IMG/VR virus record: IMGVR_UViG_3300033146_000244
Span: 1-64,000 of that record
DNA: 64,000 nucleotides
Reading direction: 5' to 3' (one strand)
Origin: a virus
Shown: positions 4,170-64,000 of the stretch, in pieces
Numbering within the stretch: the stretch's first letter is position 1
How the letters are laid out: the number at the start of each line of letters is the position of its first letter
Translations under genes and position numbers: made by a program
The notes under the pieces: model-generated
Told to the model about the DNA's origin: nothing
Seen by the model: only the letters and a program-made list of their open reading frames with translations
The model's database searches: none

Positions 4170-7100
4170 ATGCCAGAGGATACAAAGAAACCAATACCAG
4201 TAAAAACAGACGGTAAGAAAGAAGTAGCAGGTTACAAGCCTATGAGCTTCAAAGAGTATAAAGAAGACAGTGACAAACAAGCTAGACGTAGGGGTGCGCT
4301 TACTACCGCAAGACAGACGGTAGGTAATACATTACATAGGGATATAAATATAGATGAGTACGCTAAATACATGCCTATAAAAGGCGTAGTAGGAGACTTA
4401 GAAAAAAGTCAGTTAAACGATATGCGGGCTAGAGGTCAGAGTACTTTGGAACAAGTAGGTAGAACTCTTAACCCTGTTAATAGAGGGAAGAGTATTGGAT
4501 TAGGATTGATTAAAGACTTAGGTTACATAATGGAACTACCTGAGATTATATCAGGTAAAAGTGACTTTACTAATGGGTTAATAGAGTGGGCAGAGAAGAC
4601 TAAAGATAAGACAGTCGGTAAAGTGTACATGGAGAACAATGGCAAAGTATTTGACATGGCTAATCCAGCTTGGTACTTAACACATGGTGCTGATTTATAT
4701 GATAGTATGTCAGAGTTCTTATTACTGGGAGCAGGGATAGGAAGTACCGTTGCTAAAGGAACTAGCCTTACAATCAAAGGACTTAATTTAGTTGGTAATG
4801 CTGCTAAGATAGCAAAGTTTAGTGGTAATGTGCTATCCTCTGCTGCATTAACATACTTTGATGCAGCTAATACAGCAACAAGTGCTTACAAACAGACATA
4901 TAGTAGATTGACATCTGAGATTAACCCTAGAACAGGCAAGTTATTCACAGCTGAAGAAGCTGGTCAATATGCAGGAGATGCCGCTTATAGTGGTTTTGGA
5001 ACACAACTTGTGGTAGGTACAATACTTAATGCGCCATCAATAGCACCATTCTTTAAAACAGCTAGCAGTATAAAGAATAAGACAGCAGCAGAGATGCTTA
5101 AAGCAGTAAAAGGTGAGACAAGGGCAGCCAGAATTGCAAGACTTAAGGAGCTTACATTAGAAAATGAAGCAGTTAAGAAAGGGTTACAGAAGAATGCCCG
5201 TGATGGCTTGGCGCATAAGTTACCACATGAGATGGCACAGGAGTACTTTGAGGAGATAGGTGCTACATGGTCAGAGGAATCTGGAGTAGACTTAGGAATG
5301 TATAACGCAATGGGAGGTAATAAGAAGTGGTATGCAGGATTTGCAGCTATTGACAGATTAGGTAAAGTATTCTTTAGTGCTGAAGGTCAGTTATCAGGTA
5401 TGCTTGGTATAGCGGGAGGAGCAGGACAGACTATAGGTATGCACTATTTAACACCAGGTAGCTTAGGTTATAAGAGAGATAAAACGGGAGCAATAGTGTA
5501 TGATGATAATGACAAACCTATTAGTGTAGAAAAGAATACAGCTAGTTACAGGAGGTCGTGGGGATTTAACGGTAGTAAGCAGCGACTATTTACTGAGTAT
5601 GATGCGTTCAATGCACAACGTATAAATGTAATAAAGGACTTAGAATATATAAATGCTACCACTGAGCAGATAGAGAGATTAAGTGGTAAAACAGATAAAG
5701 CTAATTTAGCACAAGCAGAGGTGTTACAGGATAAGTTGTTTTCGTTGTCCACTGCTGAAAGTTTATTTAATAATAGAGGAGAGAACTTAATAGAGCTATA
5801 TGAGCAGATAGGTGCTTTAGATAATAAGAAGTTGGATGAGGACGGTGATACAGAAGCAATGCGTGCAGGAGTTACAGTTCAACCAGACACAAAGTTATAT
5901 ACATCAGACCACACAAGTAGAGCTAGTAAGTTAATAAGCGATATAAAAGAACTTAATGATGAGCACAGTAGAGTATTAGAACGTTACGATACAGAGGAAA
6001 ACAACTTATATGGTGTGCAGAAGCTGCTAACTCAAATAGCAGTAGCATCTAAGAGGTCAGAACAAACGTATAATGAAGCACGTAGTAAAACAGCTAAAGC
6101 ATATAAAGGTGCTTCTAGTAAATTGTCACTGCAAGCTAAATATGAAGCATTAAAGGAACATATAGCGGAACTTAAAAAAGAGAGTACCTTAGACAAGCAG
6201 ATAGCGGATAATGTGCAACCTGAAGACCTTAAACTAGTAGCAAAAGACTATATAACACTTGAAAAACAAAGACATACTACAGATGATATAATAAATGAAA
6301 GGTTAGAAAGCTATGATGCCTATATAAAGGTTAAGGAAGCTGAGTTAGCAAAACTTAATAAACAGTTAGTAGAAACTACTAAGGAATCTACTGAGGGTGC
6401 TACAGAGATACTAGGATTAGAAGAAACAGCTCCTATGGTTGAGGCATCTATCTCAGAGTATATGCATGATATGAATAGGCAGTTAAATAAAAAGACATTA
6501 CAATATGCTACTAAAAGAAGCACTGTTAAGAAGATACGAGATAATGGACAACGCATACACGATAAAGCTGAGAGGTCTCGTAGAGCACGTAAGAAAAAAG
6601 AGGATATAGTTAAGAACAGGGCTAAGACTACTGAAGCTAACAAAGACACTAAGAGTACAAACGATAACATAAGTGCTAAAGAGAGAGCGTTTAAAGAGGC
6701 TGAAGCTGATAAGAAGGCTATAGAGTTGGCAGAAAGGGAGCAAAGAGAAGCTGAGGAAGCTATAAGAGAAGAACAAGAGGGTGCAGTGATTAAAAATCCT
6801 GAGGGGGTAAAGACTCCCCCCAGTGTAAATGTTAATGTGGAGGCTGCGGTTTCCGATGAGAGTAGAACAGACGTTGTGAATATTGTGTCGGAAGAAGCAG
6901 AAGCTATATTCAAAGAGGTATCAGCTGACAAAGGTAAGTATAAAAAGAACTACAATACTATTAAGAAGGTTATAGCTGCGTTGTTAGCAAAGAAAGCACC
7001 TTTAAAGAGTCTGTTAGGGAATGCAGTAAACGCAGACAACTATGATAAAATATCGGTATTGGATATACCAGCAGATAGTCCAGAAGGGGACTACAAAGCT

Positions 7101-10100
7101 AAGTACATAGATTACCTTAAATGGAAGACAGCTGTAGAAGTTAATAATGCTAAGGAAGCTAGTAAGAAAGCTAACGAAGAGGGAGAAAGTATTGAAGAAT
7201 TACAGAATAGGCTTGTAGAGGTTATTAACGATGCAATAGGTACTAATAAACAAAAGTTGTTAGCTGTGGATATGCTAGCTAACATAGGTAAGTTCGTAGA
7301 GTTGGTGCAGATAGCTAGTAAGCTACATGCCAAGACAGTAGGTATAGAACTAAATGTATATACTAAAGAGGACTTAGCAATAATATATAACATGGCTGTA
7401 AGACTAGCTAAGTTAGAAGGTAGCGCTAAAGTAAGATTTCATGCACAGTACACTAAGGCTGTAGCATCTATGGCTACCTTTGAACCAGTAGAATCTAATA
7501 TCAACGCTAAAGCAGTAGAAGCATTAACTGATAATCTAGGATTAGATGGTAAGTACAAATCAATAAGCACTGGAGAAACAACACTAAAACCTTATAATGA
7601 CGAAGCTATATCTACAAGTGAGGAAGTAGCGGCAGAGGTTATAGCAGATAATAGTACAGAGACCAAGCTATGGGCTAAGGTATATAATGTGTTTGCAAGT
7701 ATAGCCTACAAAATACAAGCTAGTAAGGAGATGGTAAACAGAGAAAGAGGTAATACATACCATGTAAATACCGAAACTGTTAAGAATCTCGCCGCAATAG
7801 ATACATTATACACAGGGGACTCAGTGTCAATAAACATAGATACCGAGTATGATGGGGATGTTATGATGCCAGACGGTACTATGAGGTCTTGGTCTATAGT
7901 AAAAGATGAGTTAAGTATAGTAGCTATTGTTAAAGCAGATGATACTAGTTATATAGGGAATATACCGCTAGTAATAACAAACAGTGACGGTAAGGTAGTA
8001 GGGCATATAAGAACAACTGCTTGGTTAGATAAAAGACGTGGTAACTTACAGGAAGGTATAGATGCAGATAAAGAGATAGAAAAATTAATATCGCTAAGAC
8101 GTGGTATATTAGCAAAAGGTGGTGCTAAAACTACTATAACTAAGATAGGTACAGGCGTTATAAATAGACAACACGAAGGTAAACGTACCACTGTAACAAA
8201 AGCAATAACCAATAAGGCTATAAAGATAATAGTAGGTAGTAATAAAAATTTTGTACATAAGAAAGGTAGTACAGTAAGTATAACTAATTCAAGGTGGTTT
8301 AGTAAATTTGGATTCAACGGTGGTACTGCTTTACATATACCTATGGCTAATGGAGAGTACCATGCAATACCGGTAGCTAATCAGACGTTAGGTACATCGG
8401 GACATAATAGTACCATTGTAGCACTAATACAATTATATGTAAGTGGTGATAAGAAGGCTATATCTGAGTACAGTAAGAAGATACAAGTAGATATAGCAAA
8501 GAAAGGCACGTTAGAGAAGCTGATAAAGATGTTTATATATACAGAGTCTTTTAATAGTGATACAATGGAAGCAGAGAATGCTAAGAATGGTAAAGACCGT
8601 AGAACACAGAGTATGTTTGGTATAACTAAAGAAGGTAATATAAGATTTGCTAACATAAGAGATGTAGTAGGTGGTAAGAATAGTCTGTATGAAATAACTA
8701 GAAATGGTAATGTGCTTGTTGATGGGAGACCTAGTAAAGAAGTATCACTAGATAAGGCTTTAAATATTTTAGAAGGCTATCTAATCAATAGAAGAATGAA
8801 CACTAGTTTAGAGCACTTAGGTAAAGATAGTGCTATTGCTATACCTGTTATAGAAGATGGTAAGTTGTCAAGTAAGAAGTACACTAGCTATAGTGAGTTC
8901 TTAAAAAACCATCTGGAAACAGATATGGTAGAAAGAATAGGAGAAGATAAAGATGGTAATGTAAAATTTAGTTATACGATACAACAGACTACTGAGTTCA
9001 GTACTGAGTTAGAGGGAATAGGTGAAGAAACAGATTTAGAGGGAGATGATGATACTATATGGAATAACTTTGTAGATACTGGTAAACTACCCAGAACTAA
9101 AATAGAGGAGATAGCTAATAAGATTATAAACGGTAGTACTCTTAGTGAAAAAGAGTTATCCATGAGGACTACTTATGCTAAAGATATAGAGATTATACTT
9201 GAACAAACCAAGAGTAATGAAGAGGTAGATAAGGTTGTGTCAGCAGCAGAAACCGGTAAAGTAGATAAGACCACTAAGGAAGTAGTAATAGATAGTAAAC
9301 AATTACGAGAAGATGTTACTAATGCTATCAAAAGACAACAAGCTAGAAAATTACAAAATGGTGATATAGCTATATTACGGGCTAACAAAGATTTAGTAGC
9401 TACTATTAAGAAAGAACTAGGTGTAGGCAGTAAGAGGACTAAGAGAGCCAGTAGAGTTAAGAAAGCAATGGCAGTAGCATCTTATGAAAAAATTACTGAT
9501 ACTATCAAGGTAGCAGTAGATTCTTTAACTATAAAAGGATTGACTCCTATTCAACAAGCTAGTATGGTAGATGCTTTAATTGCTACAATGACTAGACACA
9601 TAGAGGGTGATTGGAATAGAGAGTCTGTGTCCATAGAATTAGAAGAGTTGTACAAAGATTATGTAGGTAACGCGAATGTGTTAAACGCACTATTAGAAGA
9701 ACGTAATGAAGATACACTGTTTGAAGAAAGTGAATTGGATGTAATATGGGACATGGATGCGCAACAGATAAGTGAGTTTTATGCTAGGAGGTCTGCTAGT
9801 ACTAAGACATTAAAAACATGGCAAGCGCATTACAATCTGTTATCACAAGAAGATGTGTTTAAAGATGTGATGACTAAAGTATTTGAAGGGTTAGCAGCAC
9901 GTAAGATAAAAATAGTTATGACAGAGAGTTCTCAAGTAGAAGATGCTGAAGATGGTGGAAACGATATGACAGACGAAGAGAAGATAGTTAATAAGTGGGA
10001 AATTCAGAGTGCTTCAGTAGATACATTACTACGTACCTCCGCTAAGTTTAAATCATTACTAGCAAGTGTTCCTAATTATAAGTATGTAATGGAAGACGGT

Positions 10101-18353: not shown

Positions 18354-21300
18354 ATGGGTTGCCCAAACAAACAACACCCTTTGTGGAAGAACATGGTACT
18401 TAAATTAGGAGAAGAATTAGCTTATAAAGTATATAAAGCTAATAGTGAGAAGTTACTATCAGTTAAGGAAGCAGAAGCAGTAGTAAAGAGAAGAGAAGAG
18501 CGTAGTATCAGTGATGAACAACTAGCCCCCAGTGTAAATGAGATTCCATTGACTGCGATTTCACACCCAGAAACTTACCACAGATACAACCTTACAAATA
18601 TAAAGAACGTTCAAAGACGTTTTAAAACAAATAGTGATTTAATAGCTACAATGCTAAACAATCTAAATAGGCTTAGTGGTCTAAAATTCACTAAAAGAGA
18701 AGTAAGTGAAACAGAGTCAGTCATAGATATTAGTAAAATAGAAGTAGCACAACAAGTCAATGTTGAGTATGCACTAGTTACAGAACCTATATTAGAAGAG
18801 GAAGAAGAGGAAGAAGAGGAGACAGAGAAGATAGTAGATACTAGTAAGGAGGCATTTGAGAAACTCGCTTTTACTACACAGCTGGCAATAAAAAAGGTAA
18901 GAGAAGTGAAAGCTGACTTAATAGCAAGGTCTAACAGAGATAATACATCTAAATCAGATATAAGAGATAGGTTAGATAAATTAGGTAGAGATGAAGCTGA
19001 CTTATTTCAGAATGATACGTTTATTACTGCTTTAGGTATAGCATCCGAAGCTATGGACAGATTAGAGATGGAACTTAGTAAGAACGTACAACTATCGGAT
19101 ACAGAGGTATCCTTAATGGGTAGAGAGCTCAGTACTTGGAAAACATTGTTAGATTGGATACAAGATGCAAAAAACAGTGACTATAGTGCTTTACACACTA
19201 AAGCAGTACAAGACAGTACTGAAGTATTACAAGGAAGGTACACTCGCATACACGCTGATATAATGAAGGTAACTGTAGAGAATACAAAGGCAGGGTACAA
19301 ACGAAAGATGCGTAAAGCCCCTAGTAAAGATTTTAGTACAGTTAGCGTAGAGATAAATAAAGCAAAAAGGTTTGCAGCTGATTTATCAAGAAGTGCTGAT
19401 AAGCTAGCACAATATATAGATACACTGCTTAAATCTAAGGATAGAAATACTGGTAATGTTATAGCTAAAATATTCAGTGTTATCAATGCTAAGATGACGG
19501 AAATGACCGATGCAGAAATAGACATAACAAGTAAGGAGTTTCAACGTAAGTACACAAATAGTGCGGGAGATGGGTTGGTAGATGAGTACAGCGAGCACTA
19601 TAGAGAACAGGTTAAAGCTCACGAGCACACTAGAATACGGATTAATAATTTAAAGTATGGTAAACAGCGTACTAAGCAGACAAAGAAGTTTAAAGAGTGG
19701 GAAAAGAATAATCTAATAACAGTAAACGCTTCTAAGGTGACAGGCTATAAAGCAGAAGTAACTGCCGAAGAGAGAGCTACACTAGAGAAGGAGGAACTAG
19801 ATAGACTAACTAGTATGTATGGCGCAGAGAAAGCCAGCCAGATGATAAAAAAAAGTAAAGAGCTGTATAAAGAATACTTAAAAGATAAGAAGATTAAGAT
19901 AGCTAGAATAGAAGAAGATGCTGAGGTTCATACAGAAGAAGGTAAACTACTAGAGGGTGATGCCAAGAAACAGTACATATATAATAGAACAAATTATTTT
20001 ATACGTGCTAATAACCCCTTATACTTAAATGAGTATCTCAGTGATAAGAAAAGTAACAGCTTTGTACATACAGGAGTATATAGCGTACAAGAGCCTATGC
20101 ACTATGAGAGTAATGACATACACTACGATAAGAGATTTAAGGAACTACAAAGTGATGAAGCAGCTATGGAGTTCTTAGATTGGTATAAAGCCACACTAGA
20201 TGCTTTAATTAGTAAGTTACCACAGAATATAGTAGATAAACTTGATAGTGCTTTCTTACCAGATGTGACTAAGAAGTTATCAGAAAAGTTGGTAGAAAAA
20301 GGGTTTAACGCTAAAGGTATATCAGATAGGATTATAGATTTGTTAAAGAGTGGAGAGTTTACTGAATTAGCTTTAGAGAGCATCACTGCTGATGGAGACC
20401 AATCATCATTCTTTGACAGTGCTAATAGGAAACAAAGACGTGTATTAGTGGCTAACCATAGAAACAAAGCTAAAGAGATTGGTATAGAGATAACCAAGTT
20501 AGAAGATGCTATAGAATTAAACACAGCTAAAGCAGCAGCTAAAACTAGAGAACTTGACAAATATATCAAATATGGCTTTGAGAATGACCCTGATGCCCTT
20601 GTGGCACGTGCAGAGTTAAATGTAATAAATAAGAAGATAGCGGAGGATACTGCTAAAATAGAGCCTTTAAAAGTAAAGAAAGATAAAGTAAAAGAAAATA
20701 AAAGTACTGACTTGTTTGGTATATTAAAAGCATTTGCTGTTATGGCTATATCGTATGAACAGAGTGCTGAAGTAGAAGATAGTGTATTACTAGCTAAGAG
20801 GGTAATGGACAATATAACACAGTATAAAGACCATAAAGGAGATTTGATAGAAGATGCTGACGGAGCAAAGAATATAAAAGCATTAGCTGAGTATACTATC
20901 AATAGTAGCTTATATGGCGAAACAAGGGTAGATAGAAAGACTACTAATATAGATGTAGTACTTAGCAAAGACGATAGAGTAGTTGCTAAAGCTGTAAAGA
21001 AGATAAAAATACAAGCATACGAAGATGAGGCTAATGGTATAATAACATCAAAGGAACGTCATAAAATAGTAGTAGAGCAGGACGCTAGGTACGAAGCACT
21101 TAATAAAGCTAAGTTAAGTTGGAGTAAAGTACTAGATTGGGTGTTAGCTTACACACAGTTAAAAGGATTAGGTTATAATCCCATATCGTCTTCTGTGAAC
21201 CTAGTATATGGGTTAATAATGAATCAGATGTATGCAGCATCACAGACAGATACGACACATAAGGATATGATGTGGGCATTTAAGATAATGTGGGGTGCAG

Positions 21301-25072: not shown

Positions 25073-27856
25073 CTAACCACAACTACTATCTCCGCATGTA
25101 TCACATATAGAGCAACCACCTTCGTATCTTATAGTACCACCGCATATAAGACAGTCTCCTTTTACGGTATCATCTGCTATATAGTTGCTTAATACTCTCT
25201 TTACAGCTGTTGCAAATACACCTATAGGCAATTCTACCTTATCTATATCTCTTACTGCTTGTAGTACTGTTCCACCCATTCTAAACACTCTGCTAAGTAG
25301 CCTAGTCAGTACCTCCTCTTCACCATTCATATAGTGAGATGCTAAGTCTTCTAGCACCACGTAGTCAGTCTTTAAATCATATACCGTCTTTGTATCTTTA
25401 CTTACATGTTTTACTATTTCTCCTTTGTTTACTAATAAATGAGTCTTTACATCTTTGAATGCAAATATTTCATACACCTTATCTTTATGTAAACCAATTA
25501 CTATCGTCCACAAGTTACTATTAATCCGCACACTATGTACATCGCAATTAAGTGTTTCTGGTCGTGCAGTCTCTACATTTACACTGGGGAGCGTAGCGTG
25601 TTTATGAACAACACCCATTCTGCAACCATCTCTGTACACAGTAAGTCCTTTCAAATTTGCTTTGTGTGCAGCTTTGTATATCTTTCCTATAGTCTTCTCT
25701 GTAGTATCATTCGGTAAGTTTATTGTACTGCTTATAGCACTATTTATATAACGCTGCATTGTCTTTTGTACTGCTATTCTATCTTGCCAGAGTATATCAT
25801 GTGCTGTCTGTTTATACCAAGAGGATGACTTTATAATCTCTCCTATGTTTGTTATACCATTACCCAGTCCAGTAGCATTCAACCAGTCTACAAATGGTGG
25901 GTGCATTGTAGGCAGTGTCTGCCATTTATCCCCTACCTCATCTATGAAGTCATATTCTGCATCATCAAGTACCTTCACATTTCTAAAACCTTGTACACTA
26001 TATAATGGTTCTGCTGCATTGCTTACACCTAATATAATACTACCAGTACCTACTGGTGCTATTGTACTTGTTTGTATGTTTCTTAATGCTTTCTCCGTAG
26101 ATACATTGTTATCTATTCTGTAGTCCTTACTAAACATACTCTCTCCTCTTGTATTAGCTAAAGCATAGTTAGTCCTCTCTTCTGTTTTAGCCTTTATATC
26201 CATTATACTACTTATATAGCTCATATCACTGTACTTTAATCCTAAAGCAGCTTGTGTATCAGCTAGTCCTGTAATACCTATTCCAACTCTTCTCGTTTTT
26301 ATTAGCTTTCTGCGTATATTAGTCCACAAATCAACTTCGTCCCTATCTATAGGTAGTAGTTTATTAAGTATTCTATCTATATGTTCTATCTCTACGTCCA
26401 CAAGGGTATCAGCTATCTTATGATATATTTCACAGTCCTTTGTATATTCTACCGTGTCAAACTCAGCGTTTCTTGTAAATTTGTCTATCACGTAAGCATA
26501 CAAGTTATGGTGCATCAATCCACAAGACTCATCTGGTGGTAAGGGTTGTTCTCCGCATTGCCCAGTTACTATACCGTTAAAAGTGCCTTTATGTTTTAAA
26601 GGTTCTGTAAAACAAAATGTATCTTCATTGTCTACTTCTATTACAGTTATTTTTTTTACAACTGTCTGTATCACCTTATCAAGATTATCTAGGTAGTAAG
26701 GTTCTATAGTATCTCCTACCACTATATCTTTTGCTTGTACTTTTATATTACCAGCTAGATACCAGTTATGTGCAGGGGTGCATTCTAACGAATAGCTGCG
26801 TGTAGGTACCGTTACTGATGGTGCTACATCTTCTGTGTCTATGCGTAACCACTTATTTGTTTTTCCAGTCCTCTCTATTTTAACAGTAGCCCATTGACTA
26901 CCATTCCAAACGTCATGCCAGTTACCTACTTCATTTTCTATAAATAGGTCACCTACATGTGTAGTTATACGTGTATTACCTCTTACGCATGGATTAGTAC
27001 TCACCTCCTCATACTCCTTACCGTATTTACCAGTACCGCCTCTAAGTATTGTATCCCAGAATAGTACACCTGGTTCTGCACTTAACCAGTTATTGTGCAC
27101 CAGCTTGTCCCATAGTTCTACAGCACGTATTACTTTAATATACATACCGTCTATTAAGCATAGTCCTTCTGTATACTTAGCTTCCCAACCTGCTGGTAAT
27201 TTAGCATCTATAGGGAATGTTTGCACATACTGTGAGTCTGTTTCTACCGCTTCCATGAAATCATCACTCACTTTTACTGATATATTTGCTCCAGTAATCT
27301 TAGTTGTGTCCTTTTTAGCATCTATGAAGTCTCCTGCATCAGGATGCCTAACGTCTATACTCAACATCAACGCACCTCGTCTGCCGTCTTGTGCGACTCT
27401 GCGTGTGTCTTCACTATACTGTTCCATGAATGGTACTATGCCTGTAGATGTATTAGCTGCATTATTAACTACAGCTCCTTTTGGTCTAATGTGCGATAAG
27501 TCGTGTCCTACACCACCTCTACGCTTCATAAGATTTACAGCATCTAAAGCTGTTCTGTATATACCATTATAAGAGTCTGGTGTATTACCTATTACAAAGC
27601 AGTTACGTGTACTTACTAGCTTATCAGTACCAACACTTGCCATATAGCTACCACCTAGTATGAATTTACCTTCATTAAATAGTCGTAGTATTGTTATCTT
27701 GTCTATACCGTCTGTGTAATTTTTCTCTTTATCCTTTTTTACAATAGCGTTTGCTATCCTTTCAAATGAGTCTTGTATTGTGACTTCTGCTCCTTGTAAC
27801 CATTTCTGATTAAAGATGCTTCTACCAAACTCGTTATTTTTAAAGTATTCTCCCAT
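25073..27856 (-). CDS. nrdJ: Class II (B12-dependent) ribonucleotide reductase with mini-intein
   Basis: NCFV, GGVG, VAQDGRRGALM, TNPC[intein]CGEQPL, TIAPVGT, ISSTINLP, KGLTVYRDG and a C-terminal Cys-rich tail. No small-subunit gene nearby. Confidence 0.92.
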   Translation of the reverse strand: MGEYFKNNEFGRSIFNQKWLQGAEVTIQDSFERIANAIVKKDKEKNYTDGIDKITILRLFNEGKFILGGSYMASVGTDKLVSTRNCFVIGNTPDSYNGIYRTALDAVNLMKRRGGVGHDLSHIRPKGAVVNNAANTSTGIVPFMEQYSEDTRRVAQDGRRGALMLSIDVRHPDAGDFIDAKKDTTKITGANISVKVSDDFMEAVETDSQYVQTFPIDAKLPAGWEAKYTEGLCLIDGMYIKVIRAVELWDKLVHNNWLSAEPGVLFWDTILRGGTGKYGKEYEEVSTNPCVRGNTRITTHVGDLFIENEVGNWHDVWNGSQWATVKIERTGKTNKWLRIDTEDVAPSVTVPTRSYSLECTPAHNWYLAGNIKVQAKDIVVGDTIEPYYLDNLDKVIQTVVKKITVIEVDNEDTFCFTEPLKHKGTFNGIVTGQCGEQPLPPDESCGLMHHNLYAYVIDKFTRNAEFDTVEYTKDCEIYHKIADTLVDVEIEHIDRILNKLLPIDRDEVDLWTNIRRKLIKTRRVGIGITGLADTQAALGLKYSDMSYISSIMDIKAKTEERTNYALANTRGESMFSKDYRIDNNVSTEKALRNIQTSTIAPVGTGSIILGVSNAAEPLYSVQGFRNVKVLDDAEYDFIDEVGDKWQTLPTMHPPFVDWLNATGLGNGITNIGEIIKSSSWYKQTAHDILWQDRIAVQKTMQRYINSAISSTINLPNDTTEKTIGKIYKAAHKANLKGLTVYRDGCRMGVVHKHATLPSVNVETARPETLNCDVHSVRINSNLWTIVIGLHKDKVYEIFAFKDVKTHLLVNKGEIVKHVSKDTKTVYDLKTDYVVLEDLASHYMNGEEEVLTRLLSRVFRMGGTVLQAVRDIDKVELPIGVFATAVKRVLSNYIADDTVKGDCLICGGTIRYEGGCSICDTCGDSSCG
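25575..25589 (-). repeat. Dispersed motif copy 3
   Basis: Minus strand CCCCAGTGTAAATGT, encoding LPSVNV in the linker after the NrdJ catalytic domain. Confidence 0.85.
26558..26989 (-). mobile_element. Mini-intein (144 aa, no homing endonuclease) in the NrdJ active-site loop
   Basis: Splits TNP|CGEQ. Starts CVRGNT, has block-B CTPAH, ends GIVTGQ before the +1 Cys. Confidence 0.9.
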
Positions 27857-30516: not shown

Positions 30517-31348
30517 ATATTGTAATTATAAATTCATTTAATAATGCGTAATACTTTAATTTATTTTTGTGGTCTCCTATCTTAATTGCCTCAGTAAACC
30601 AGTTATATAAGTCCCACACTGTTGCAAAACCTTCCTCATCTATAGGAAATAGGTTATCATCACTGTCTCTATACTTTATAGCCGCTATTACTACCCCCTG
30701 TGGTAATACTTCTAACATATTACCAAAGAAAGCATTTTGTATGTATCGTGGCAGTTCAATACCCCTCATGTCTTCTATAAACGCATCTAATTTAGTATCA
30801 TCTGATGCTATGAATGTTTTTATTTCTTCAAGCATTGTATGCAAAGAGTTTTCTATATCGCCTGTATGCCTCTTCTTTATATCTACGTCACTGTTAATTA
30901 TCATACCGTTACTACATATAGACATATTGTAGCCAAGTCCTATACGCAATGCAATACTTTTGTTTGTACTGTTTAGTACATATATAGTTTTACAGTATTC
31001 TTTATCCTCTTCTTTATTCATTCTTATCTCTGCAAACATAGTTGTAACTAGTCGCATCATTTGTATCGTTGGTAGGTTATAACCACTTTCTAAGTAAGTA
31101 ACTATATCTTTCTCTACTTTACGCATATAGGGTGTTGAACGATTATTCTTAGACAGCCCTATTGTTACGATGACTTCCTTAACGGTAGATATGTTATCTT
31201 CATTAGCTTTCATCATTACTGTATTTAGTACATCATATAAAGGAAGCGGTTTCCATGTATTAGTTCGGTTTGGTGTAGATATTAGTTCTAATATGGTTGC
31301 TACTCTTACGTCTATTTCATAGTCTGTCATTAAATTTAATGTTATCAT
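30458..31348 (-). CDS. DUF932/DUF945-like protein
   Basis: LNSTNKS...GYNMSICSNGMI...KRHTG and TVWDLYNWFTE signatures. Confidence 0.65.
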   Translation of the reverse strand: MITLNLMTDYEIDVRVATILELISTPNRTNTWKPLPLYDVLNTVMMKANEDNISTVKEVIVTIGLSKNNRSTPYMRKVEKDIVTYLESGYNLPTIQMMRLVTTMFAEIRMNKEEDKEYCKTIYVLNSTNKSIALRIGLGYNMSICSNGMIINSDVDIKKRHTGDIENSLHTMLEEIKTFIASDDTKLDAFIEDMRGIELPRYIQNAFFGNMLEVLPQGVVIAAIKYRDSDDNLFPIDEEGFATVWDLYNWFTEAIKIGDHKNKLKYYALLNEFIITIYGEKQILFNKGGTKKLITK

Positions 31349-37027: not shown

Positions 37028-38194
37028 TTAATAATTTCCCCAAATCTTATTAACTACTGACTTCTCTACTACACTTGCCCAACTACCATCTACATACAAC
37101 CACTGGTTACCTGTAGATATGCCTTGTTTTATCTGACTAGTGTAATCTCTGTCTATACCATGTATGCGTATATCTTCCACAATACCGCTATATGCACTAT
37201 ATACGCTACCAGAGTAAGCACTATTAAACCTATCACCCTTACTGTACCGTGCACTTACTTCTTTATTCAACGCAGCCTCTACTTCTTTTGTACTAGCTAT
37301 ACTCCAATCTTCTGGTCTTCCTTTAATGGTGGTAGTAGCTTTAGCTATCCATGTACCATCAGTACCCCAACCATATCCCGTAAAGTGCTCGGTACTTGTA
37401 ATATAAATTAAACTACCATTTACACTCTTATACCACGTATTTACTTTCAATCTTACCGTGTCTCCTATCTTAAACTTTAACTTACCTTTCCATTTTAATT
37501 CATTATAGTAAGTTTTAGCGTTTGTTTCGTTTGAGAAATGTTTAGTATTCACTTTACTACCTTTTACAAAACAACCATACTTTATTACTGGTATGCCCTC
37601 CTTATCGTACCCAACAATCCAACTCTCCTCGTTTTGATAGATAGCTCTTCCTTTTAATGTGCCTTGCCAGTTTTCTGCCCTACCGTCCAAGCCCTTATGA
37701 CACTTCGTAGTAGTACACATATCACTGTTCATAGGTGCTTTATTACAATTAATACAGCTCTTCTTAGGAAACGTACCATCTGTAAAGTCCTCTGTGTAGA
37801 ACATAGGTTTTATACCTGACTCTATTAGTTCTTTTTTAGTTAAGACTTCTCCAAGTGTATAAGGTGTATCACCTACCCATACACACGCTAAACCTCCCAC
37901 TGACAAAGCATAGTCAGTCACTACTCCTAAGTACTTATTTGTGTACTTACTATATATACCTGTACCTCCCAATCCTTGATTTACGTTGAACACATTATTG
38001 CTAATATCGTTATCGCTTCCTACGTCAGCTCCCCCTGTGTTATTGTTATCTTGCTGCTGCATTTTTTGACCGTCATCTCCCTCATTTACTTCAAATTGCA
38101 GTACCTCCATAATGTATTTCTTTGCGTACTCATTATCGCGTGTGTAATATGAATTAACAGCATTACATAATCTCTTACATTCGTTTATTGTCAT
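37028..38194 (-). CDS. Hypothetical multi-domain protein
   Basis: 388 aa; Cys cluster (CINC...C....C) and an FKIGD-type strand. Confidence 0.6.
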   Translation of the reverse strand: MTINECKRLCNAVNSYYTRDNEYAKKYIMEVLQFEVNEGDDGQKMQQQDNNNTGGADVGSDNDISNNVFNVNQGLGGTGIYSKYTNKYLGVVTDYALSVGGLACVWVGDTPYTLGEVLTKKELIESGIKPMFYTEDFTDGTFPKKSCINCNKAPMNSDMCTTTKCHKGLDGRAENWQGTLKGRAIYQNEESWIVGYDKEGIPVIKYGCFVKGSKVNTKHFSNETNAKTYYNELKWKGKLKFKIGDTVRLKVNTWYKSVNGSLIYITSTEHFTGYGWGTDGTWIAKATTTIKGRPEDWSIASTKEVEAALNKEVSARYSKGDRFNSAYSGSVYSAYSGIVEDIRIHGIDRDYTSQIKQGISTGNQWLYVDGSWASVVEKSVVNKIWGNY

Positions 38195-50618: not shown

Positions 50619-50891
50619 AGTTGTATTTATTAAATTGTAATACCATTATTAGTATTTAGCGCCATATCTACATGTTATTGTAGGGTTAGGTCATATCTAT
50701 AAGATACGTAACATATCACTATGCTATCTGCTTGACACATGTTTAGGTTGTTGTCTTACTTACCTTGTCAATGGTAACAACCTATTTATAGTTTCCTATA
50801 AATCTTTATACTTGCCGTAAAGGATTCATCAGCCTTACTTACTATTCTTTAATATTCTATTACTACCGTTACACGGTAGCCCCTGTGTAAA

Positions 50892-51251
50892 TTAGATGCT
50901 GCCTAGAAACTCTTTATAATCCCTAAGTGCCGTTTTAACTGTCTTTACTGGCACTTCACAACGTCCTAAGTACCTTTTGAGGTCTTTCTTATTCTGTGCG
51001 TACATTGCACCTTTGATTACATAACTTTCTAAGAGGAGAAAGCGTGTATTAACTACTACCGAATCCTCACTCTTTATAGATGTCATCGGCATTATTATCA
51101 GTTGGTGCTTATCAGCGGACTCCTTGATAACAAGAGCTGGTCGTTTCTTCCCATGATACTCTGCAATTACCACATCGCCTCGTTTAAACTCTGTTATAGC
51201 AATGCTGAGGTCGCTATACTGTTTGTTTTTATTTATTAGTTTTTTAGACAT
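50892..51251 (-). CDS. PemK/MazF-like fold protein
   Basis: KRGDVV......KKRPALVI........IIMPMTS. Confidence 0.6.
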   Translation of the reverse strand: MSKKLINKNKQYSDLSIAITEFKRGDVVIAEYHGKKRPALVIKESADKHQLIIMPMTSIKSEDSVVVNTRFLLLESYVIKGAMYAQNKKDLKRYLGRCEVPVKTVKTALRDYKEFLGSI

Positions 51252-51460
51252 GTTGTTTTTTTTTATTCGTCTGCTATTAGTATTTTATAAAGAATCGTAT
51301 AGTATGTTAGTGCGATTACGTATAGTAGTATTGTATTATTATAATTGTTAGTCCTATCATAGAACTTAATACTGTATGCACTACCTACTGGTACTATTAT
51401 TAGATATTTTATGTCTGTTTGTTGCTATGTTGTTAAACTACCAGTGCAATGTAGTAGGTG

Positions 51461-51496
51461 CAAAACGCAGCAAATGATTTACATTTACACTGGGGG
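51461..51496 (-). repeat. Dispersed motif copy 6 (only intergenic copy)
   Basis: Minus strand CCCCCAGTGTAAAT, 12 nt, then CTGCGTTTTG. Confidence 0.85.
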
Positions 51497-55067: not shown

Positions 55068-55919
55068 TTACATGGTAAATGCTTCGTTAGAGCTGCTTGT
55101 GAAGGATGCGAATGTTCTAACTTCACCGTGTTCTGCTCTTAACGCTTTTCTAGCATCAGTAAGCTCATCTTGTAAGATTTCAAGCATTATGGTTTCGGTG
55201 TCTTCGTCGTAATCACCTTCTTTAAGGCTTGCAACTTCTAACGCATGCTCTCTAAGCAATTCAGCGTTAGTAGTGCTTTTAGCTCGTATCTTTGACAAGT
55301 CAAAGTTTAACACGATTTGAGAGTGTTCTCTAACATTGTCAGTTCCACTAATAGCATCTCCTTTGAGTCCTGCTTCAAACGCTAGTGTTATTACCTGTCC
55401 CTCTTTAAGGTTCATTTTACGTACAATGCTTGCAGGTAGAGTAATTTTAACTGTCCTTTTACCCGTTACTGCATTACTGATAGCACCGTAGTTTAGTTCG
55501 GTAACACCTCTGTTGATATACGTAGCTTTCTCCATTCTTTCAAATGTTACAGCATCGTGAGGTAGAATACTATCGCAGAACTCTACCCAGTCAATACTTT
55601 GACCGATAAGGGTAATGTTATAAAAGGCACGATACATATCTTCCACAGCATCCTGCTTATACATCTTTGCGACTTTGACAACTACTGTCTTAGGTTTACG
55701 ACTACTTTGTGGATTACTCAAACTTTCGTAATACTCCGCAATCTGCAATGTTGTATAACCAGCGTTAGTAAGTGCACTGTCAAACACAGGACGTTCTTGT
55801 GCGTTAGGCATAGCTCCGTCGGCTAAGTTGAACTCTTCACGTAATTCTTTCATATTCTTTACTGGTACGGCTACATCAGAATATCCTTGTATTAATACTG
55901 CTCTGTTAAAATCTTGCAT
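55068..55919 (-). CDS. Hypothetical protein, first gene of the leftward arm
   Basis: 283-aa ORF adjacent to the non-coding region. Confidence 0.75.
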   Translation of the reverse strand: MQDFNRAVLIQGYSDVAVPVKNMKELREEFNLADGAMPNAQERPVFDSALTNAGYTTLQIAEYYESLSNPQSSRKPKTVVVKVAKMYKQDAVEDMYRAFYNITLIGQSIDWVEFCDSILPHDAVTFERMEKATYINRGVTELNYGAISNAVTGKRTVKITLPASIVRKMNLKEGQVITLAFEAGLKGDAISGTDNVREHSQIVLNFDLSKIRAKSTTNAELLREHALEVASLKEGDYDEDTETIMLEILQDELTDARKALRAEHGEVRTFASFTSSSNEAFTM

Positions 55920-57091
55920 AATATATAATTATTAAAAGTTTATACTCCGCTTAATACACATTCAGTTTTACGATGCTATGTAAATTGTATATGTATTTGC
56001 ATTCCCTATCAGATTTAATAGGGGGGTAGTGTAATGCAATATTCCGAAAAGGTCGCAAGCTAAGGGTAGGTAACCCACACATCTCCTCTCAACAAACAAT
56101 CCAAACCCAACTACTTAATAAAAAATTTTTTAAAAAAATTCTAAACCCCTAACACACCAACCTTAGTAACAACCACTCCTAAACAACTATATTTCCCTAA
56201 ACCTTCATAACTAATCTACCAACCACTTTATCACCAATTACCAAACAACATTACACTACCCTATAAAAACTCTAAGCACAACTACCCTGCACTTAATAAA
56301 TTCAAACAGCCTTACACTACGACACTACATTTTTACTCAATGTTATAGTGTAGTTGTTTTTAATTGCTTATTACCACCGCCTATTATAGAAAAAACACAA
56401 CACCACATCTGTTACAATACTCTTGTTACCACACGCTTTAAACATGTTTATACCTTATATTTTTATATAACGTACCTTCCTTAACGTATTTTTTATACTT
56501 ACTTATTTAAGCAGACATTACCAATTATGAAGATAGCTGTACTACATCATTATTTTAATACAGTCACTATATAACGATTGTAACTAACTACTACTTCTAA
56601 TACACATACTGTATCATCAAGTTTATTCACTTTTACACTTTTAAGAGGTACACCTAATACAATTACACAAATAATATGTTAAAAATTGTTAAAGATTGTT
56701 AAAATACTCTGATATATTTGGAAATGTTAAAAATAAACGGTAACTTTGCTAAAATAAACAACTAAAGAAAATATTAATATAAATACGGAGTAAATAACTA
56801 ATACTACTACACTACGATATTAATAATTACATACTTAAATAAAACTTACTTAATATATAACACTATTATAATAAGTAATACTTAGATAATACTTAAATAG
56901 AATACTAGTTTATATATAACAGTATTATAATAAATAGTACTTATATAAAGTATTAGTTTATATATTAAGGTAGATATTTTTAACTACCTATTATGTATCT
57001 TCGTATATAACACACGTGTTATAATTACTAGCTACTTTAACGTATATCTGTAATTAACGTGTACGTCAAGTAATAATTAATAACACATTCA
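55920..57091. other. Non-coding divergence region (candidate origin or genome terminus)
   Basis: No ORF of 60 aa or more; coding strand switches here. G-poor tract around 56070-56330, very AT-rich tract around 56760-57000. Confidence 0.6.
56717..56748 (+). promoter_or_regulatory. Bacteroidota sigma promoter for the packaging/head arm
   Basis: TTTG (56717-56720), 20-nt spacer, TAACTTTG (56741-56748). Confidence 0.75.
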
Positions 57092-58844: not shown

Positions 58845-61049
58845 ATGACTACTCGCATGACAAAGCTAAGTAAGCTCTATAGAATAGACAGTAGTATAAT
58901 AGAGGATGTATATAAGCTAGCTAAGAAACATGACATACATATATACGATGCTTACACTGCATACCTACGGTACGACGCCCCCAGTGTAATAGATAAGCAC
59001 TGTGCCGATTTTTCCTTTAATCAGAAGATAGTTAGTTGGTACAAGAGTGATAGATACTTAGTTAATACAGAGAAGTACAGAGAAGCAGCAGAAACATTCC
59101 GAACTACTGGTAGTTACACGAACTTAAAACCAAATAAGCACCCTAATAGTGAGTACATGAAGTTCTGGGTAGAAGAGGCTCGTAGGAGTATATATGGGTT
59201 TCATATAGGTAATGACTGGATATCTGGTTATTACTATTTTTATTTGAATTATTCTCCTATAGATTTGGCGGTAGTATTGGACGATACATCTAGTAACGGT
59301 GCTATAAGGGGAGACCGTATAACTGACTTTGCTTCTATGTGGGACGGTGATTACTACTACTTTCACTATTTAGAAGAATGTGAACGTACTGGTAAACAAG
59401 CAGCAGTACTTAAGGCACGTGGTAGAGGATTTAGTTGGAAACACGCTTCTATGCTAGATAGAAACTTCTTCTTGATACCTAAGAGTAAGTCAATGGTGTA
59501 TGCTAGTAGTAAAGAATACTTGACTGGTAATGACGGTATATTAACTAAGGCTTGGTCTATAATGAGCCACTTAGATTTGAATACGGCTTGGGCTAAGAGA
59601 AGACAGGTTAAGAACACGCAGGACAGTAAGAGAGCATCGTTAGAACGGGTGAAAAACGGCGTAAAGACTGAAACTGGGTTCATGTCAGAAATATCTGGAA
59701 TTACACTGGGGGATAGTGTGCATAAGCTAAGAGGAAAGCGTAGTAAACTGATAATATTTGAAGAGTCTGGTAGTTTTAAGGACTTGGAGACTGCGTGGAT
59801 AGTTTCAGACCCAAGTGTTAAGCAAGGTAATATAGTGTTTGGTCTTAAGGTGGCATTTGGTACAGGAGGTGAAGAGGGTAGTCAGTTTGAAGGGTTGAAG
59901 AACTTATTTTATAAACCAGACGCTTTTAACGTGTTGTCTTTACCTAATGTATGGTCAGGTAATGCAGAACATAACAAGGTGGGGTGGTTTGCTCCTTCCT
60001 ACATTAACTTGGAAGGGCACTATGATAAAGATGGTAATAGTAATATAGAGGTTGGTAAGAAAGCAATAGAACAAGAAAGAGAAGATGCGTTAGTAAGTGG
60101 TGTAGCACCTAGTACATTCCAGAAGATGAAAGCAGAGAACCCCTTAGTGCCTGAAGATGCTATATTGAGGAGTACGCTGAGCCCTTTTCCGGTACAGATG
60201 CTATCAGAACATTTGGTCTTGCTGGAGACAGATACTGCTTATAGAGGTAAGGTTAGTAAGGGTACTTTATCCTTGACTATGGAAAATGAGGTTGTATGGC
60301 AAGAGGACTTGTTGAATAAAGTACATGTCATAGGCACTGATGATGTAAATAGCTTGAACGTAGATGGTGGTATAGAAGTTTATCAGCACCCACCAAGTAT
60401 GAAGGTTTCAAGAAATACGTTTATTATAGGGGTAGACCCGATAGACTTTGATAGGAATGAAGTTGGTAAGAACTTCTCTTTAGGTAGTATGTTTGTTATG
60501 AATACACTTACTGAGCAGATAGTAGCTGAGTATACTGGAAGACCTGCTAATGCTAATGATTTTTATGAGAACGTGAGGAGGTTATCTATGTATTATAATG
60601 CTAAGGTGATGTATGAGAATAACTTGAAAGGGTTGTATGTATATTTTACTAACAAGTTTAGTGAGCACATGTTATCTTTAAAGCCTACTATACTGCAGGA
60701 TACTAATGAGCAAATGAAGGTAGGTAATAGGAAGTATGGATTCACTGCTGCTGGTAATCAATCTTCAAGCATACTTAAGTATGGGAGACAACTTATAAAG
60801 GAGTGGTTAGAAAAGAGACTATCAGGCACAGACGATACTAGGTTACTATATACTATTAGAAGTGCTGGTCTGGTGCGAGAGTTGATAGATTGGCACGCAG
60901 ACGGTAACTATGATAGGGTAAGTGCGTTGATAGCTGTTATGATACATCTTGCTGATACTGATAGGACTAGGACTAGAAATGGTAGTAAATCTACTGAGGT
61001 AGATGTAGAGGCTCGTAATTTCTATAATAGGCCTTTTCTTGGGTGGTAG
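58845..61049 (+). CDS. terL: Terminase large subunit
   Basis: Walker A LKARGRGFSW, Walker B IIFEESG, FGTGG, nuclease IGVDP, YENN, GNYDRVSA. Confidence 0.93.
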   Translation: MTTRMTKLSKLYRIDSSIIEDVYKLAKKHDIHIYDAYTAYLRYDAPSVIDKHCADFSFNQKIVSWYKSDRYLVNTEKYREAAETFRTTGSYTNLKPNKHPNSEYMKFWVEEARRSIYGFHIGNDWISGYYYFYLNYSPIDLAVVLDDTSSNGAIRGDRITDFASMWDGDYYYFHYLEECERTGKQAAVLKARGRGFSWKHASMLDRNFFLIPKSKSMVYASSKEYLTGNDGILTKAWSIMSHLDLNTAWAKRRQVKNTQDSKRASLERVKNGVKTETGFMSEISGITLGDSVHKLRGKRSKLIIFEESGSFKDLETAWIVSDPSVKQGNIVFGLKVAFGTGGEEGSQFEGLKNLFYKPDAFNVLSLPNVWSGNAEHNKVGWFAPSYINLEGHYDKDGNSNIEVGKKAIEQEREDALVSGVAPSTFQKMKAENPLVPEDAILRSTLSPFPVQMLSEHLVLLETDTAYRGKVSKGTLSLTMENEVVWQEDLLNKVHVIGTDDVNSLNVDGGIEVYQHPPSMKVSRNTFIIGVDPIDFDRNEVGKNFSLGSMFVMNTLTEQIVAEYTGRPANANDFYENVRRLSMYYNAKVMYENNLKGLYVYFTNKFSEHMLSLKPTILQDTNEQMKVGNRKYGFTAAGNQSSSILKYGRQLIKEWLEKRLSGTDDTRLLYTIRSAGLVRELIDWHADGNYDRVSALIAVMIHLADTDRTRTRNGSKSTEVDVEARNFYNRPFLGW
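58978..58990 (+). repeat. Dispersed motif copy 7
   Basis: CCCCCAGTGTAAT in the TerL N-terminal extension (APSVI). Confidence 0.8.
59700..59712 (-). repeat. Dispersed motif copy 8 (antisense to terL)
   Basis: Minus strand CCCCCAGTGTAAT; the sense strand encodes GITLG. Confidence 0.75.
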
Positions 61050-63457: not shown

Positions 63458-64000
63458 ATGGATGTTAATGCACCAATCACAATAGATTTAGGTGAAGGTA
63501 ATGGAATAGATAACCCTGTGGACTTAGGGGCAACTAGTGCGGAAACGGGGGCTAATATTGGTATTACACTGGGAGAGCCACAGAGTGGCGATAAATTAGA
63601 GATAGGGAATAATGATGCACCTATAGAAGATGGTGTAAATAAGGAAGAAGTTGAGGTATCTAGTGGTGAAGAAGAGGGTACTAATGGAGAAGATAGATAT
63701 GATGAATCAAGTGTTGATGCGGGTGAGTTATCAAGATACTTACAAGATGAGGGTATATTACCAAAGGGTGATATAGGAGATGATTACAGTATGGACGACT
63801 TCCATGATGCTATGGAAGATAGGATAACTAGTGGTATAAAGAGTGGTGTAGAGAGTATATTAGCTGGAGCACCCAAAGAAGCAGTTGATTATTTTAATCA
63901 TCTTAAGAACGGTGGTAGCTTACAGGACTATCAAAGAGCAACGTCTTCTGACTATGGAAGTGTTGCAGCTGGTGCTTTAAAAGATAATGTAGGTTTACAA
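63458..64000 (+). CDS. Acidic scaffold-like head protein, 3'-truncated
   Basis: ATG at 63458, frame open to the window end (MDVNAPITIDLGEG...HLKNGGSLQDY). Very acidic; follows the portal. Confidence 0.65.
   Translation, partial: MDVNAPITIDLGEGNGIDNPVDLGATSAETGANIGITLGEPQSGDKLEIGNNDAPIEDGVNKEEVEVSSGEEEGTNGEDRYDESSVDAGELSRYLQDEGILPKGDIGDDYSMDDFHDAMEDRITSGIKSGVESILAGAPKEAVDYFNHLKNGGSLQDYQRATSSDYGSVAAGALKDNVGLQ
63563..63573 (-). repeat. Dispersed motif copy 9 (shorter C-run, antisense)
   Basis: Minus strand CCCAGTGTAAT; the sense strand encodes GITLG. Confidence 0.6.

Follow-up and report, generated by a model that had tools for sequence, protein, structure and literature searches.

The window analyzed, a stretch of 64,000 nucleotides corresponding to positions 1 to 64,000 of IMG/VR record IMGVR_UViG_3300033146_000244 (84,568 bp), belongs to a crAss-like phage from a hydrothermal vent, whose terminase is only about 40% identical to those of gut crAss-like phages. 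It contains a giant ORF of 4,711 aa with a DFDxD-type motif (DFDFD at residue 3294) like that of crAss-like virion RNA polymerases, a ribonucleotide reductase large subunit, a DnaG-like primase, a DnaB-like helicase, a family A DNA polymerase, a PemK/MazF-like gene, a gene with an AbrB-like motif, the large terminase, and the portal gene. The phage also codes for an ATP-dependent ligase, an exonuclease, and an AAA_24 protein, and the last two may form a recombination module. A 12-base DNA word is written through many of these genes (Table 1), and we found no published description of it.

Distribution of the word in the genome

The original prediction listed nine copies of a dispersed motif, and this observation was confirmed, as all nine are present within 1 to 2 nt of the positions given, with the reading frames, gene locations, and gaps that had been described. 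Within the window, seven copies match CCCCAGTGTAA exactly, against 0 in 100 dinucleotide shuffles, and ten match with up to one mismatch, against 0.66 expected. In the whole record, the 12-mer CCCCCAGTGTAA occurs 8 times (0.005 expected) and is the most overrepresented 9- to 12-mer by observed/expected ratio. An enrichment over codon-aware nulls had been set beforehand as a test, and it was found. The core CCCAGTGTA occurs 11 times in coding DNA, against 0.56 in a synonymous shuffle that keeps the proteins and 0.43 in a codon-order shuffle, while the 11-mer occurs 8 times, against 0.04 and 0.02, respectively.

Seven further sites had been missed, three of them beyond the window and four with a T at position 6. 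With this variant (CCCCCWGTGTAW), there are 16 sites in the genome, 13 of them in the window, with eight on each strand and about 10 kb apart on each. Spacing is even on both the plus strand (coefficient of variation [CV], 0.26; P = 0.0014) and the minus strand (CV, 0.42; P = 0.022), and the strands alternate at 14 of 15 steps (P = 0.0012), with the four variant sites completing the alternation (P = 0.0007). Plus-then-minus gaps (0.6 to 7.1 kb) are shorter than minus-then-plus gaps (2.3 to 10.7 kb; P = 0.007). However, the pairing and alternation statistics lean on the four variant sites, which are not individually significant on the word alone, and without the weakest site (7819) the pairing test falls to P = 0.08. 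A weaker second box, CTGCG(N)TTT, usually lies 8 to 15 nt downstream of the word and is enriched there (for example, 6 of 12 sites against a 1.6% background; P of about 1e-8, in a test chosen after seeing the data).

Table 1 Copies of the word, related sequences, and candidate reader genes (positions of the record)
Position	Strand	Sequence	Context	Remarks
6817..6854	+	Word CCCCCAGTGTAA (6817-6828), box CTGCGGTTTCC (6844-6854)	Sense, 4,711-aa giant ORF	Read as PPSVN
7784..7819	-	Variant word TCCCCTGTGTAT (7808-7819), weak box TTGCGGCGAGATTC	Antisense, giant ORF	LYTGD; weakest member, not above the control on the word alone
18526..18563	+	Word CCCCCAGTGTAA, box CTGCGATTTCA	Sense, residue 58 of the 1,353-aa ORF	APSVN
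25560..25590	-	Word TCCCCAGTGTAA, weak box CTGCACGACC	Sense, ribonucleotide reductase large subunit, residue 756	LPSVN
31317..32315			DnaG-like primase gene	Candidate reader
31988..32024	+	Variant word CCCCCTGTGTAT, strong box CTGCGTTTTTGC	Antisense, DnaG-like primase gene	YTQGA
35644..35694	-	Word CCCCCAGTGTAA, box TTGCGGAGTTTACC	Sense, 207-aa ORF upstream of the DnaB-like helicase	TPSVN; box after a 25-nt gap
38031..38068	+	Variant word CCCCCTGTGTTA, box CTGCATTTTTTG	Antisense, 388-aa ORF	NNTGG; ORF has no homologue in the closest relative
42668..42705	-	Word ACCCCAGTGTAT, box TCCGCAGTTCC	Sense, DNA polymerase A, residue 49	TPVY; TAA replaced by TAT in the frame where TAA would be a stop
50879..50910	+	Variant word GCCCCTGTGTAA	Intergenic, abutting the stop codon of the PemK/MazF-like gene	Faces the copy at 51496; in the minus-strand block
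51460..51496	-	Word CCCCCAGTGTAA, box CTGCGTTTTGC	Intergenic, about 230 nt upstream of the PemK/MazF-like gene	
55068..55919			AbrB-motif protein	Candidate reader
56021..56036	+	Related word GGGGGGTAGTGTAATG	Noncoding, about 100 bp upstream of the gene with the AbrB-like motif	Left arm of a 13-bp perfect inverted repeat
56249..56261	-	GGGTAGTGTAATG	Noncoding	Right arm of the inverted repeat, facing the left arm across 212 nt; third GTAGTGTAA copy at about 56310-56320 (minus strand)
58978..59015	+	Word CCCCCAGTGTAA, box GTGCCGATTTTTCC	Sense, large terminase, residue 45	APSVI; variable loop of a conserved N-terminal domain
59651..59712	-	Word CCCCCAGTGTAA, possible distant box ACGCCGTTTTTC	Antisense, large terminase, residues 286-290	ITLGD, overwriting the conserved peptide G(V/I)TLGD with the rare codons CTG and GGG; box after a 38-nt gap
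63541..63575	-	Word CTCCCAGTGTAA, box CCCCCGTTTCC	Antisense, 370-aa ORF after the portal gene	ITLGE
73604	+			Beyond the window
74850	-			Beyond the window
83907	+			Beyond the window

The original prediction also claimed that the sites follow the direction of transcription, pointing from the 56-kb region to a junction at 22.46 kb, and this was not supported. Although the 12 A-type copies are mostly sense (9 of 12), with the variants the count is 9 sense to 7 antisense. All four T variants are antisense, which is explained by coding, as a T at position 6 would give a Cys codon or a stop in every sense frame. This weakens the idea of re-initiation sites for the virion RNA polymerase, the leading idea of the original prediction, and any reading at the RNA level. 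Transcription signals more generally (promoters, re-initiation, pause or antitermination sites, or terminators for the virion or the host polymerase) appear very unlikely, as 14 of the 16 sites lie inside genes of all modules, and scans for RNA families, tRNAs, promoters, and terminators gave nothing at the sites, with no terminator-like or conserved RNA structure. In phi14:2, the early transcripts made by the virion polymerase share no upstream motif, and the middle and late promoters are sigma-70-like and intergenic (10.1101/2020.03.07.982082). In favor of this reading are the DFDFD motif of the giant ORF and the resemblance of the word, read on the G-run strand, to T7-group promoters that end in ...CACTATAGGG.

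Constraint at the DNA level

The word is kept at the level of the DNA. It is built with rare codons, as CCC represents 8% of the Pro codons and, in the antisense copies, CTG and GGG represent 7% of the Leu and 11% of the Gly codons, respectively. The codon preceding CCC is always xCC while its amino acid varies (A/P/L/T/S), and five other PSV tripeptides use other codons, so that a protein motif (PSVN or ITLG) was rejected. In addition, the word occurs in several reading frames, in both orientations, and in noncoding DNA, and the change of TAA to TAT at 42705 avoids an in-frame stop.

The closest relative of the terminase has 67% identity (P0002), while the closest accessible relative for genome comparison, G001, is syntenic and has 61% terminase identity. 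G001 lacks the word and has no common word at the orthologous positions. De novo word searches in G001 and in a second relative, G002, exact and with one mismatch, found only protein repeats and codon patterns, and C5/G5 runs in other crAss-like terminase genes map to other positions (97, 199, 296, and 517). In the terminase gene, the VTLGD peptide of the relative (GTT ACT TTA GGA GAC) is ITLGD here (ATT ACA CTG GGG GAT), with no indel, and elsewhere only indels of 0 to 6 aa separate the two phages at the sites.

These alignments bear on the possibility that the words are relics or ends of a small mobile element, like an in-frame mini-insert or the terminal inverted repeats of a cassette, or alternatively words specified by the host, like an uptake sequence. 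Facing copies do bracket the 0.6-kb PemK-like cassette like terminal inverted repeats. However, inserts of 13 to 20 aa are not seen, the copies share only the 12- to 15-nt word plus a short box with unrelated spacers between them, and other facing pairs enclose essential coding sequence. Scans of IMG/VR (15-mer), metagenome contigs (15-mer), and 185,579 species-representative genomes (14-mer) gave only single, chance-level matches, although the last two scans were partial. We consider these possibilities the most remote. Regarding uptake sequences (USS of Pasteurellaceae and DUS of Neisseriaceae), these are words of 9 to 12 nt on both strands, more evenly spaced than chance and written through genes in tolerant frames and weakly conserved segments, features also found here, and USS has a core plus phased AT-rich tracts, which resembles the core-plus-T-run layout of this phage. 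They differ in being words of a bacterial chromosome, about one per kb, read by the competence machinery, while here the word belongs to a phage and occurs once per 5 kb, and the partial 14-mer scan found no prokaryote genome with repeated copies.

Possible functions of the word

Taken together, the interpretation of the original prediction is partly supported, as the constraint is on the nucleic acid and the sites form a genome-wide cis-acting system with regular spacing. We can state with high confidence, from the enrichment, codon use, spacing, and alignments, that the word and its downstream box are a selected, strand-specific DNA recognition signal that evolved in place, kept about every 10 kb on each strand even inside essential genes, and not a protein motif, a chance pattern, or a mobile insert. 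What follows is inferred from sequence alone or by analogy, including any priming, nicking, or binding at the sites, for which there is no physical evidence, as assembled contigs do not show DNA ends.

Our tentative explanation is that the word is read on single-stranded or unwound DNA by a phage-encoded replication factor as a preferred start or loading site for strand synthesis. In this view, the C5 tract would template a G-rich, stable 3' end of a primer of the form 5'-..ACACUGGGGG, and the copies that face each other, including the inverted pair in the 56-kb noncoding region, which has the same relative orientation, would mark places from which synthesis leaves in both directions. Candidate readers are the DnaG-like primase and a lineage-specific DNA-binding protein, like the AbrB-motif protein beside the noncoding copies. 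The phage codes for the primase, helicase, ligase, and family A polymerase, and the equal use of both strands, regardless of transcription, suits a process that reads each strand in turn. T7 primase selects about 14 to 26 strong sites, defined by a short core plus a 10-nt flank, that consolidate to about 14 sites 1 to 6 kb apart (PMC12839067), and plasmid primases use specific single-strand initiation sites on both strands, as with the two specific 40-nt sites of RepB' (RSF1010 ssiA and ssiB) (PMC8567376). However, G001 has an orthologous primase (43% identity), helicase, ligase, and polymerase, and an essential replication signal should not be absent there, unless its version is too degenerate to detect. 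Normal lagging-strand priming also needs far more than one site per 10 kb, and the sites are sparser than these preferred priming sites, at about 10 kb per strand. Folding of all 16 sites as DNA showed no shared hairpin (z-scores from -1.7 to +1.3) of the kind used by single-strand initiation sites, primosome assembly sites, or N4 promoters.

Less likely, the words could be double-stranded binding sites for a lineage-specific protein that would organize, condense, or regulate the genome, for example, by looping between facing sites. One candidate is the AbrB/MazE-motif protein (with the typical AbrB-type motif KRTVKITLPASIVRKMNLKEGQVITL), perhaps acting with the PemK/MazF-like protein, whose gene lies between the facing copies 50879+ and 51496-. 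The shared core AGTGTAA recurs in the noncoding inverted repeat and its third copy, and sequences upstream of the C run tend to complement AGTGT, if only weakly, giving partial dyad symmetry (mean stem, 3.6 against 2.9; P = 0.002). The gaps between word and box fall roughly into classes about one helical turn apart (8 to 15, 21 to 25, and 38 nt), and the word and the AbrB-motif and PemK-like genes are all absent from the closest relative. On the other hand, both Pfam matches are below the curated cutoffs (21.5 against 24.7 bits and 21.2 against 23.1 bits), the strongest conservation is in the asymmetric C5 tract rather than in a dyad, even spacing on each strand separately is not needed for a factor that binds duplex DNA, and AbrB-type proteins usually have loose specificity.

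Programmed single-strand nicks made by a phage nickase, as in T5, phiKMV-like, and tf/LUZ24-like phages, are doubtful but remain possible. The tf word TACTRTGMC and the Rembedalsseter word WACTRTGAC are likewise short and lineage specific, with about 10 to 14 copies per genome, inside and outside genes without regard to gene function, and are thought to coevolve with a phage enzyme, their function being still unknown (PMC3517423, PMC11780129). The ligase of this phage would be consistent with such a system. However, in every described case all sites lie on one strand (PMC3517423, PMC11780129), the Rembedalsseter-group sites are not evenly spread, and the nick words are conserved at similar positions among relatives, while here the sites are eight per strand, evenly spaced, bipartite, and absent from the closest relative. 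No HNH or other nickase domain was found among the proteins scanned.

Translocation or recombination signals, also proposed originally, remain possible. Chi-like signals would tame a helicase-nuclease (host AddAB/RecBCD or a phage enzyme) that travels along one strand from any DNA end, protecting the genome or directing recombination. Like the word described here, Chi sites are strand-specific, orientation-dependent words spread over a genome. A strand-specific word in both orientations with even spacing on each strand is, by inference, the best layout for limiting degradation from a break anywhere, and the exonuclease and AAA_24 protein might take part. We consider this unlikely, as Chi sites are single blocks of 5 to 8 nt specified by the host enzyme and biased with replication direction, while this signal is 12 nt plus a second box, with no orientation bias (8:8 by strand and 9:7 relative to the gene blocks), the phase relation between strands is not expected for Chi, and no prokaryote genome in the partial 14-mer scan carried more than one copy.

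A more speculative and unlikely possibility that the data still allow is that the facing pairs, including the noncoding one, are dispersed bidirectional initiation zones, where a lineage-specific factor would read the C-rich strand and start, or load the machinery for, outward synthesis at about eight places in the genome. This would be a replication layout not described for any phage, and it may be shared, in different sequence versions, by other crAss-like phages. crAss-like phages are among the most abundant viruses known, yet how they replicate, package, and protect their DNA is largely unknown. A word that the phage pays for with rare codons and amino acid changes inside its terminase, polymerase, primase, and ribonucleotide reductase genes must serve a step important enough to outweigh those costs, and, being short and defined, it gives a direct experimental handle at 16 known positions. 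Its equal use of both strands, even spacing, and facing pairs set it apart from the one-strand nick words of other phages, and if related words in other crAss-like phages prove to be the same system, it would be a family-wide feature of their genome biology.

Searches for a reader and other enriched words

Pfam and PHROGs searches over most ORFs found no nickase, and searches of PDB sequences and of a protein atlas were uninformative for four lineage-specific proteins. The AbrB-motif protein has no homologues. Among sequencing runs, no RNA run with the phage was found, and in the contigs of three DNA runs from one hydrothermal-vent study, about 116 variable positions were found over 20 kb, with none of 40 of these falling in a word, a comparison without power, as about 0.4 hits were expected.

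On the opposite strand the word reads TTACACWGGGGG, of a pyrimidine/TAC/G-run type. AGTGTAA alone (39 copies) is largely made of the commonest Ser and Val codons and was not used as evidence outside noncoding DNA. A second enriched word, TACCGTCT (20 copies), is antisense in 18 of the 19 copies inside genes, with one more intergenic, and is the complement of GAC GGT (Asp-Gly), so it is a coding effect and not a signal.

Enrichment of the word and its maintenance at the DNA level

The analyzed sequence is an IMG/VR phage record of 84,568 bp, of which the window is the first 64 kb, and which is present in runs from a hydrothermal-vent metagenome study. Its gene content identifies it as a divergent crAss-like phage, with a large terminase about 40% identical to those of gut crAss-like phages, a portal and a major head protein, and a replication block coding for a DnaG-like primase at 31317-32315, a DnaB-like helicase at 34263-35324, an ATP-dependent ligase, a family A polymerase, a ribonucleotide reductase, and a dUTPase. 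A single ORF of 4711 aa carries the motif DFDFD at residue 3294, which is the DFDxD signature of crAss-like virion RNA polymerases, although neither PHROGs nor Pfam recognizes this protein. Rfam also reports a tRNA (43.6 bits) that ARAGORN does not call and that overlaps the start of an ORF.

The observation made in the original prediction holds, as all nine copies that it reported are present. The 12-mer CCCCCAGTGTAA occurs 8 times in the genome against 0.005 expected, and it is the most overrepresented 9- to 12-mer by observed/expected ratio. Codon-aware nulls had been proposed beforehand as a test, and against them the core CCCAGTGTA occurs 11 times in coding DNA, while a synonymous shuffle that keeps every protein gives 0.56 and a codon-order shuffle gives 0.43. 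Not every enriched word in this genome is a signal, as TACCGTCT occurs 20 times against 1.7 expected, but 18 of its 19 copies inside genes are antisense and it is the complement of the Asp-Gly codons GAC GGT, so it is a coding effect.

The signal is in the DNA and not in the protein. Sense copies read x-P-S-V-x, always as xCC CCC AGT GTA, where CCC is the rarest Pro codon (8%). The preceding codon always ends in CC (GCC, ACC, TCC, CTC, or CCC, each 3 to 8% of its family), while its amino acid varies, and five other PSV tripeptides in the proteome use other codons. Antisense copies use ATT ACA CTG GGG, with CTG at 7% and GGG at 11% of their families. At 42705, where TAA would be an in-frame stop, the word reads TAT instead, and two copies lie in noncoding DNA. 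The clearest case is the terminase gene, in which the peptide G-V-T-L-G-D, conserved in an alignment of the family, is encoded in the closest relative compared as GTT ACT TTA GGA GAC. In this phage it is ATT ACA CTG GGG GAT, which spells the word on the opposite strand without any insertion. At the other sites that can be aligned, the two phages differ by 0 to 6 residues, and the sites lie in poorly conserved loops. The word was therefore written in place by substitutions and small indels and is not a mobile insert. Mobile elements leave a discrete insert, and an origin of the words from a mobile element, or from the host, is the least likely of the explanations considered.

Structure and layout of the sites

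The first box is CCCCCWGTGTAW, with the strongest conservation in the C-run, G7, and G9. Downstream come an A/T-rich stretch and then a GC-rich box followed by a T-run, CTGCG(N)TTT(Y)C, with a gap of 8 to 15 nt in eleven sites and of 21 to 25 or 38 nt in the rest. Simple versions of this second box are far more frequent downstream of the word than at random positions (P about 1e-8, in a test chosen after seeing the data). No hairpin is shared among the sites, but sequences just upstream of the C-run tend to complement AGTGT (P=0.002), which gives partial dyad symmetry.

Allowing two mismatches, and using a weight matrix, we added four copies with T at position 6, for a census of 16 sites. On the word alone these four are not above Markov controls, although three of them carry a recognizable second box. 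All four fall in gaps between two same-strand neighbors and lie on the opposite strand, and four random extra sites would complete the alternation this well with P=0.0007. A T at position 6 would force a Cys codon or a stop in every sense frame, which explains why the T variants are all antisense.

Positions of the word and of associated features in the record
Feature	Position	Strand	Details
Word	6817	plus	
Word	7819	minus	T at position 6
Word	18526	plus	
Word	25590	minus	
Word	31988	plus	T at position 6
Word	35694	minus	
Word	38031	plus	T at position 6
Word	42705	minus	
Word	50879	plus	T at position 6
Word	51496	minus	
Word	58978	plus	
Word	59712	minus	
Word	63575	minus	
Word	73604	plus	
Word	74850	minus	
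Word	83907	plus	
ORF with DFDFD motif	4170-18305	plus	4711 aa
Accessory arm	42.8-56 kb		
ORF overlapped at its start by the tRNA	46872-47990		
Rfam tRNA	47945-48013	minus	
PemK/MazF-like gene	50892-51251	minus	
Weak match of the arm to the relative	54349-54747		
AbrB-motif gene	55068-55919	minus	283 aa; motif at residues 153-182
Noncoding region between divergent gene blocks	55920-57091		
Inverted repeat, first arm	56024-56036		GGGTAGTGTAATG
Tract almost free of G	roughly 56076-56330	plus	about 250 nt
Inverted repeat, second arm	56249-56261		complement of GGGTAGTGTAATG
Third copy	near 56312		GTAGTGTAA, GTAGTAGTAA-like

Spacing is more even than chance on the plus strand (CV 0.26, P=0.0014) and on the minus strand (CV 0.42, P=0.022), and strands alternate at 14 of 15 steps (P=0.0012). 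A plus-strand site is followed closely by a minus-strand site (0.6 to 7.1 kb), while the reverse gaps are longer (2.3 to 10.7 kb; P=0.007, or 0.08 without the weakest site), so the words tend to face each other in pairs. Relative to transcription, the count is 9 sense to 7 antisense. The interpretation in the original prediction is thus only partly supported: the constraint does act on the nucleic acid, as it proposed, but its rule that the sites follow the direction of transcription came from counting only the A-type copies.

The noncoding region near 56 kb holds three copies of GTAGTGTAA, two of which form a perfect 13-bp inverted repeat and face each other across 212 nt, as the pairs of words do. 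The G-poor tract begins between the arms and runs on past the right arm, and this is a plausible origin or control region. The protein with the AbrB/MazE DNA-binding motif, an orphan with an acidic tail after a typical motif, is encoded beside these copies. Four kb away, and bracketed by two words, is the gene of a PemK/MazF-like protein that has a typical N-terminal signature (but only 21.2 bits in Pfam, below the cutoff) and no adjacent antitoxin. The two may form a split toxin-antitoxin-like pair. They make a suggestive but weakly supported case that the words are binding sites for a lineage-specific DNA-binding protein, a possibility that we consider doubtful, although it ranks second among the readings.

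Distribution in related genomes

The closest terminase in 5.8 billion proteins is 67% identical, and the genome comparison was made with the next closest (61%), which lies on a 76,983-bp IMG/VR genome with terminal repeats. The two genomes are collinear apart from the accessory arm, which includes DUF8224, the PemK-like gene, and the AbrB-motif gene and has almost no counterpart in the relative, with one weak match. Only about 2265 residues of the 4711-aa ORF align with the relative, at 35% identity. The two ends of the record map about 0.7 kb apart inside one gene of the relative, so the genome is nearly complete despite the 85% estimate.

This relative lacks the word, has no comparable dispersed exact word, and has nothing in common at the orthologous positions. 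A more distant relative was also negative, and scans of three public collections for the 14- or 15-mer listed only scattered single matches. On these comparisons, the word is therefore specific to this lineage. It shares the spacing and coding-placement properties of bacterial uptake sequences, but no genome with many copies was found among the matches listed in these scans.

Possible functions and comparison with other signals

The equal use of both strands, the even spacing per strand, and the indifference to gene orientation argue against RNA-level and transcription readings. In the one crAss-like phage studied, early transcripts made by the virion polymerase share no upstream motif, and later promoters are sigma-70-like and intergenic (10.1101/2020.03.07.982082). 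As promoters are intergenic and co-oriented with their genes, we consider transcription signals improbable. The layout suits a process that handles each DNA strand in turn, and our preferred reading, which remains tentative, is a preferred start or loading site for strand synthesis, in which the C5 tract would template a G-rich primer end and facing pairs would act as points from which synthesis leaves in both directions. The nearest precedents are the strong sites selected by T7 primase, which combine a core with a 10-nt flank (PMC12839067), and plasmid single-strand initiation sites (PMC8567376), although initiation signals have a hairpin. The main objection is that a relative with orthologous replication genes has no such word. 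The enrichment, the maintenance of the word at the DNA level, and the arrangement of the sites are what the analysis shows, while priming or loading, protein binding, nicking, and every other function considered are inferred from assembled contigs, without physical evidence.

Two further readings appear less likely. Nick sites placed on both strands are possible, only slightly behind protein binding, but every described nick system uses one strand only (PMC3517423, PMC11780129). Chi-like signals are unlikely, as Chi is a short single block with orientation bias. The signal belongs with dispersed, strand-specific genomic recognition words, from whose described examples it differs in the ways given for each. 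A literature search found no description of such words in crAss-like phages. The word has real potential to reveal an undescribed step in how these phages handle their DNA.

A different kind of strand-biased word, for which we have no explanation, was seen in the whole genome of the crAss-like phage cr55_1 (NC_055869.1). There, the degenerate word CCNNAGTAAK occurs 54 times, against 2 for the reversed control. In coding DNA it occurs 13 times sense and 30 times antisense, against 1.6 and 3.4 in synonymous shuffles, and it lies mostly on the noncoding strand and is not evenly spaced (CV about 1).
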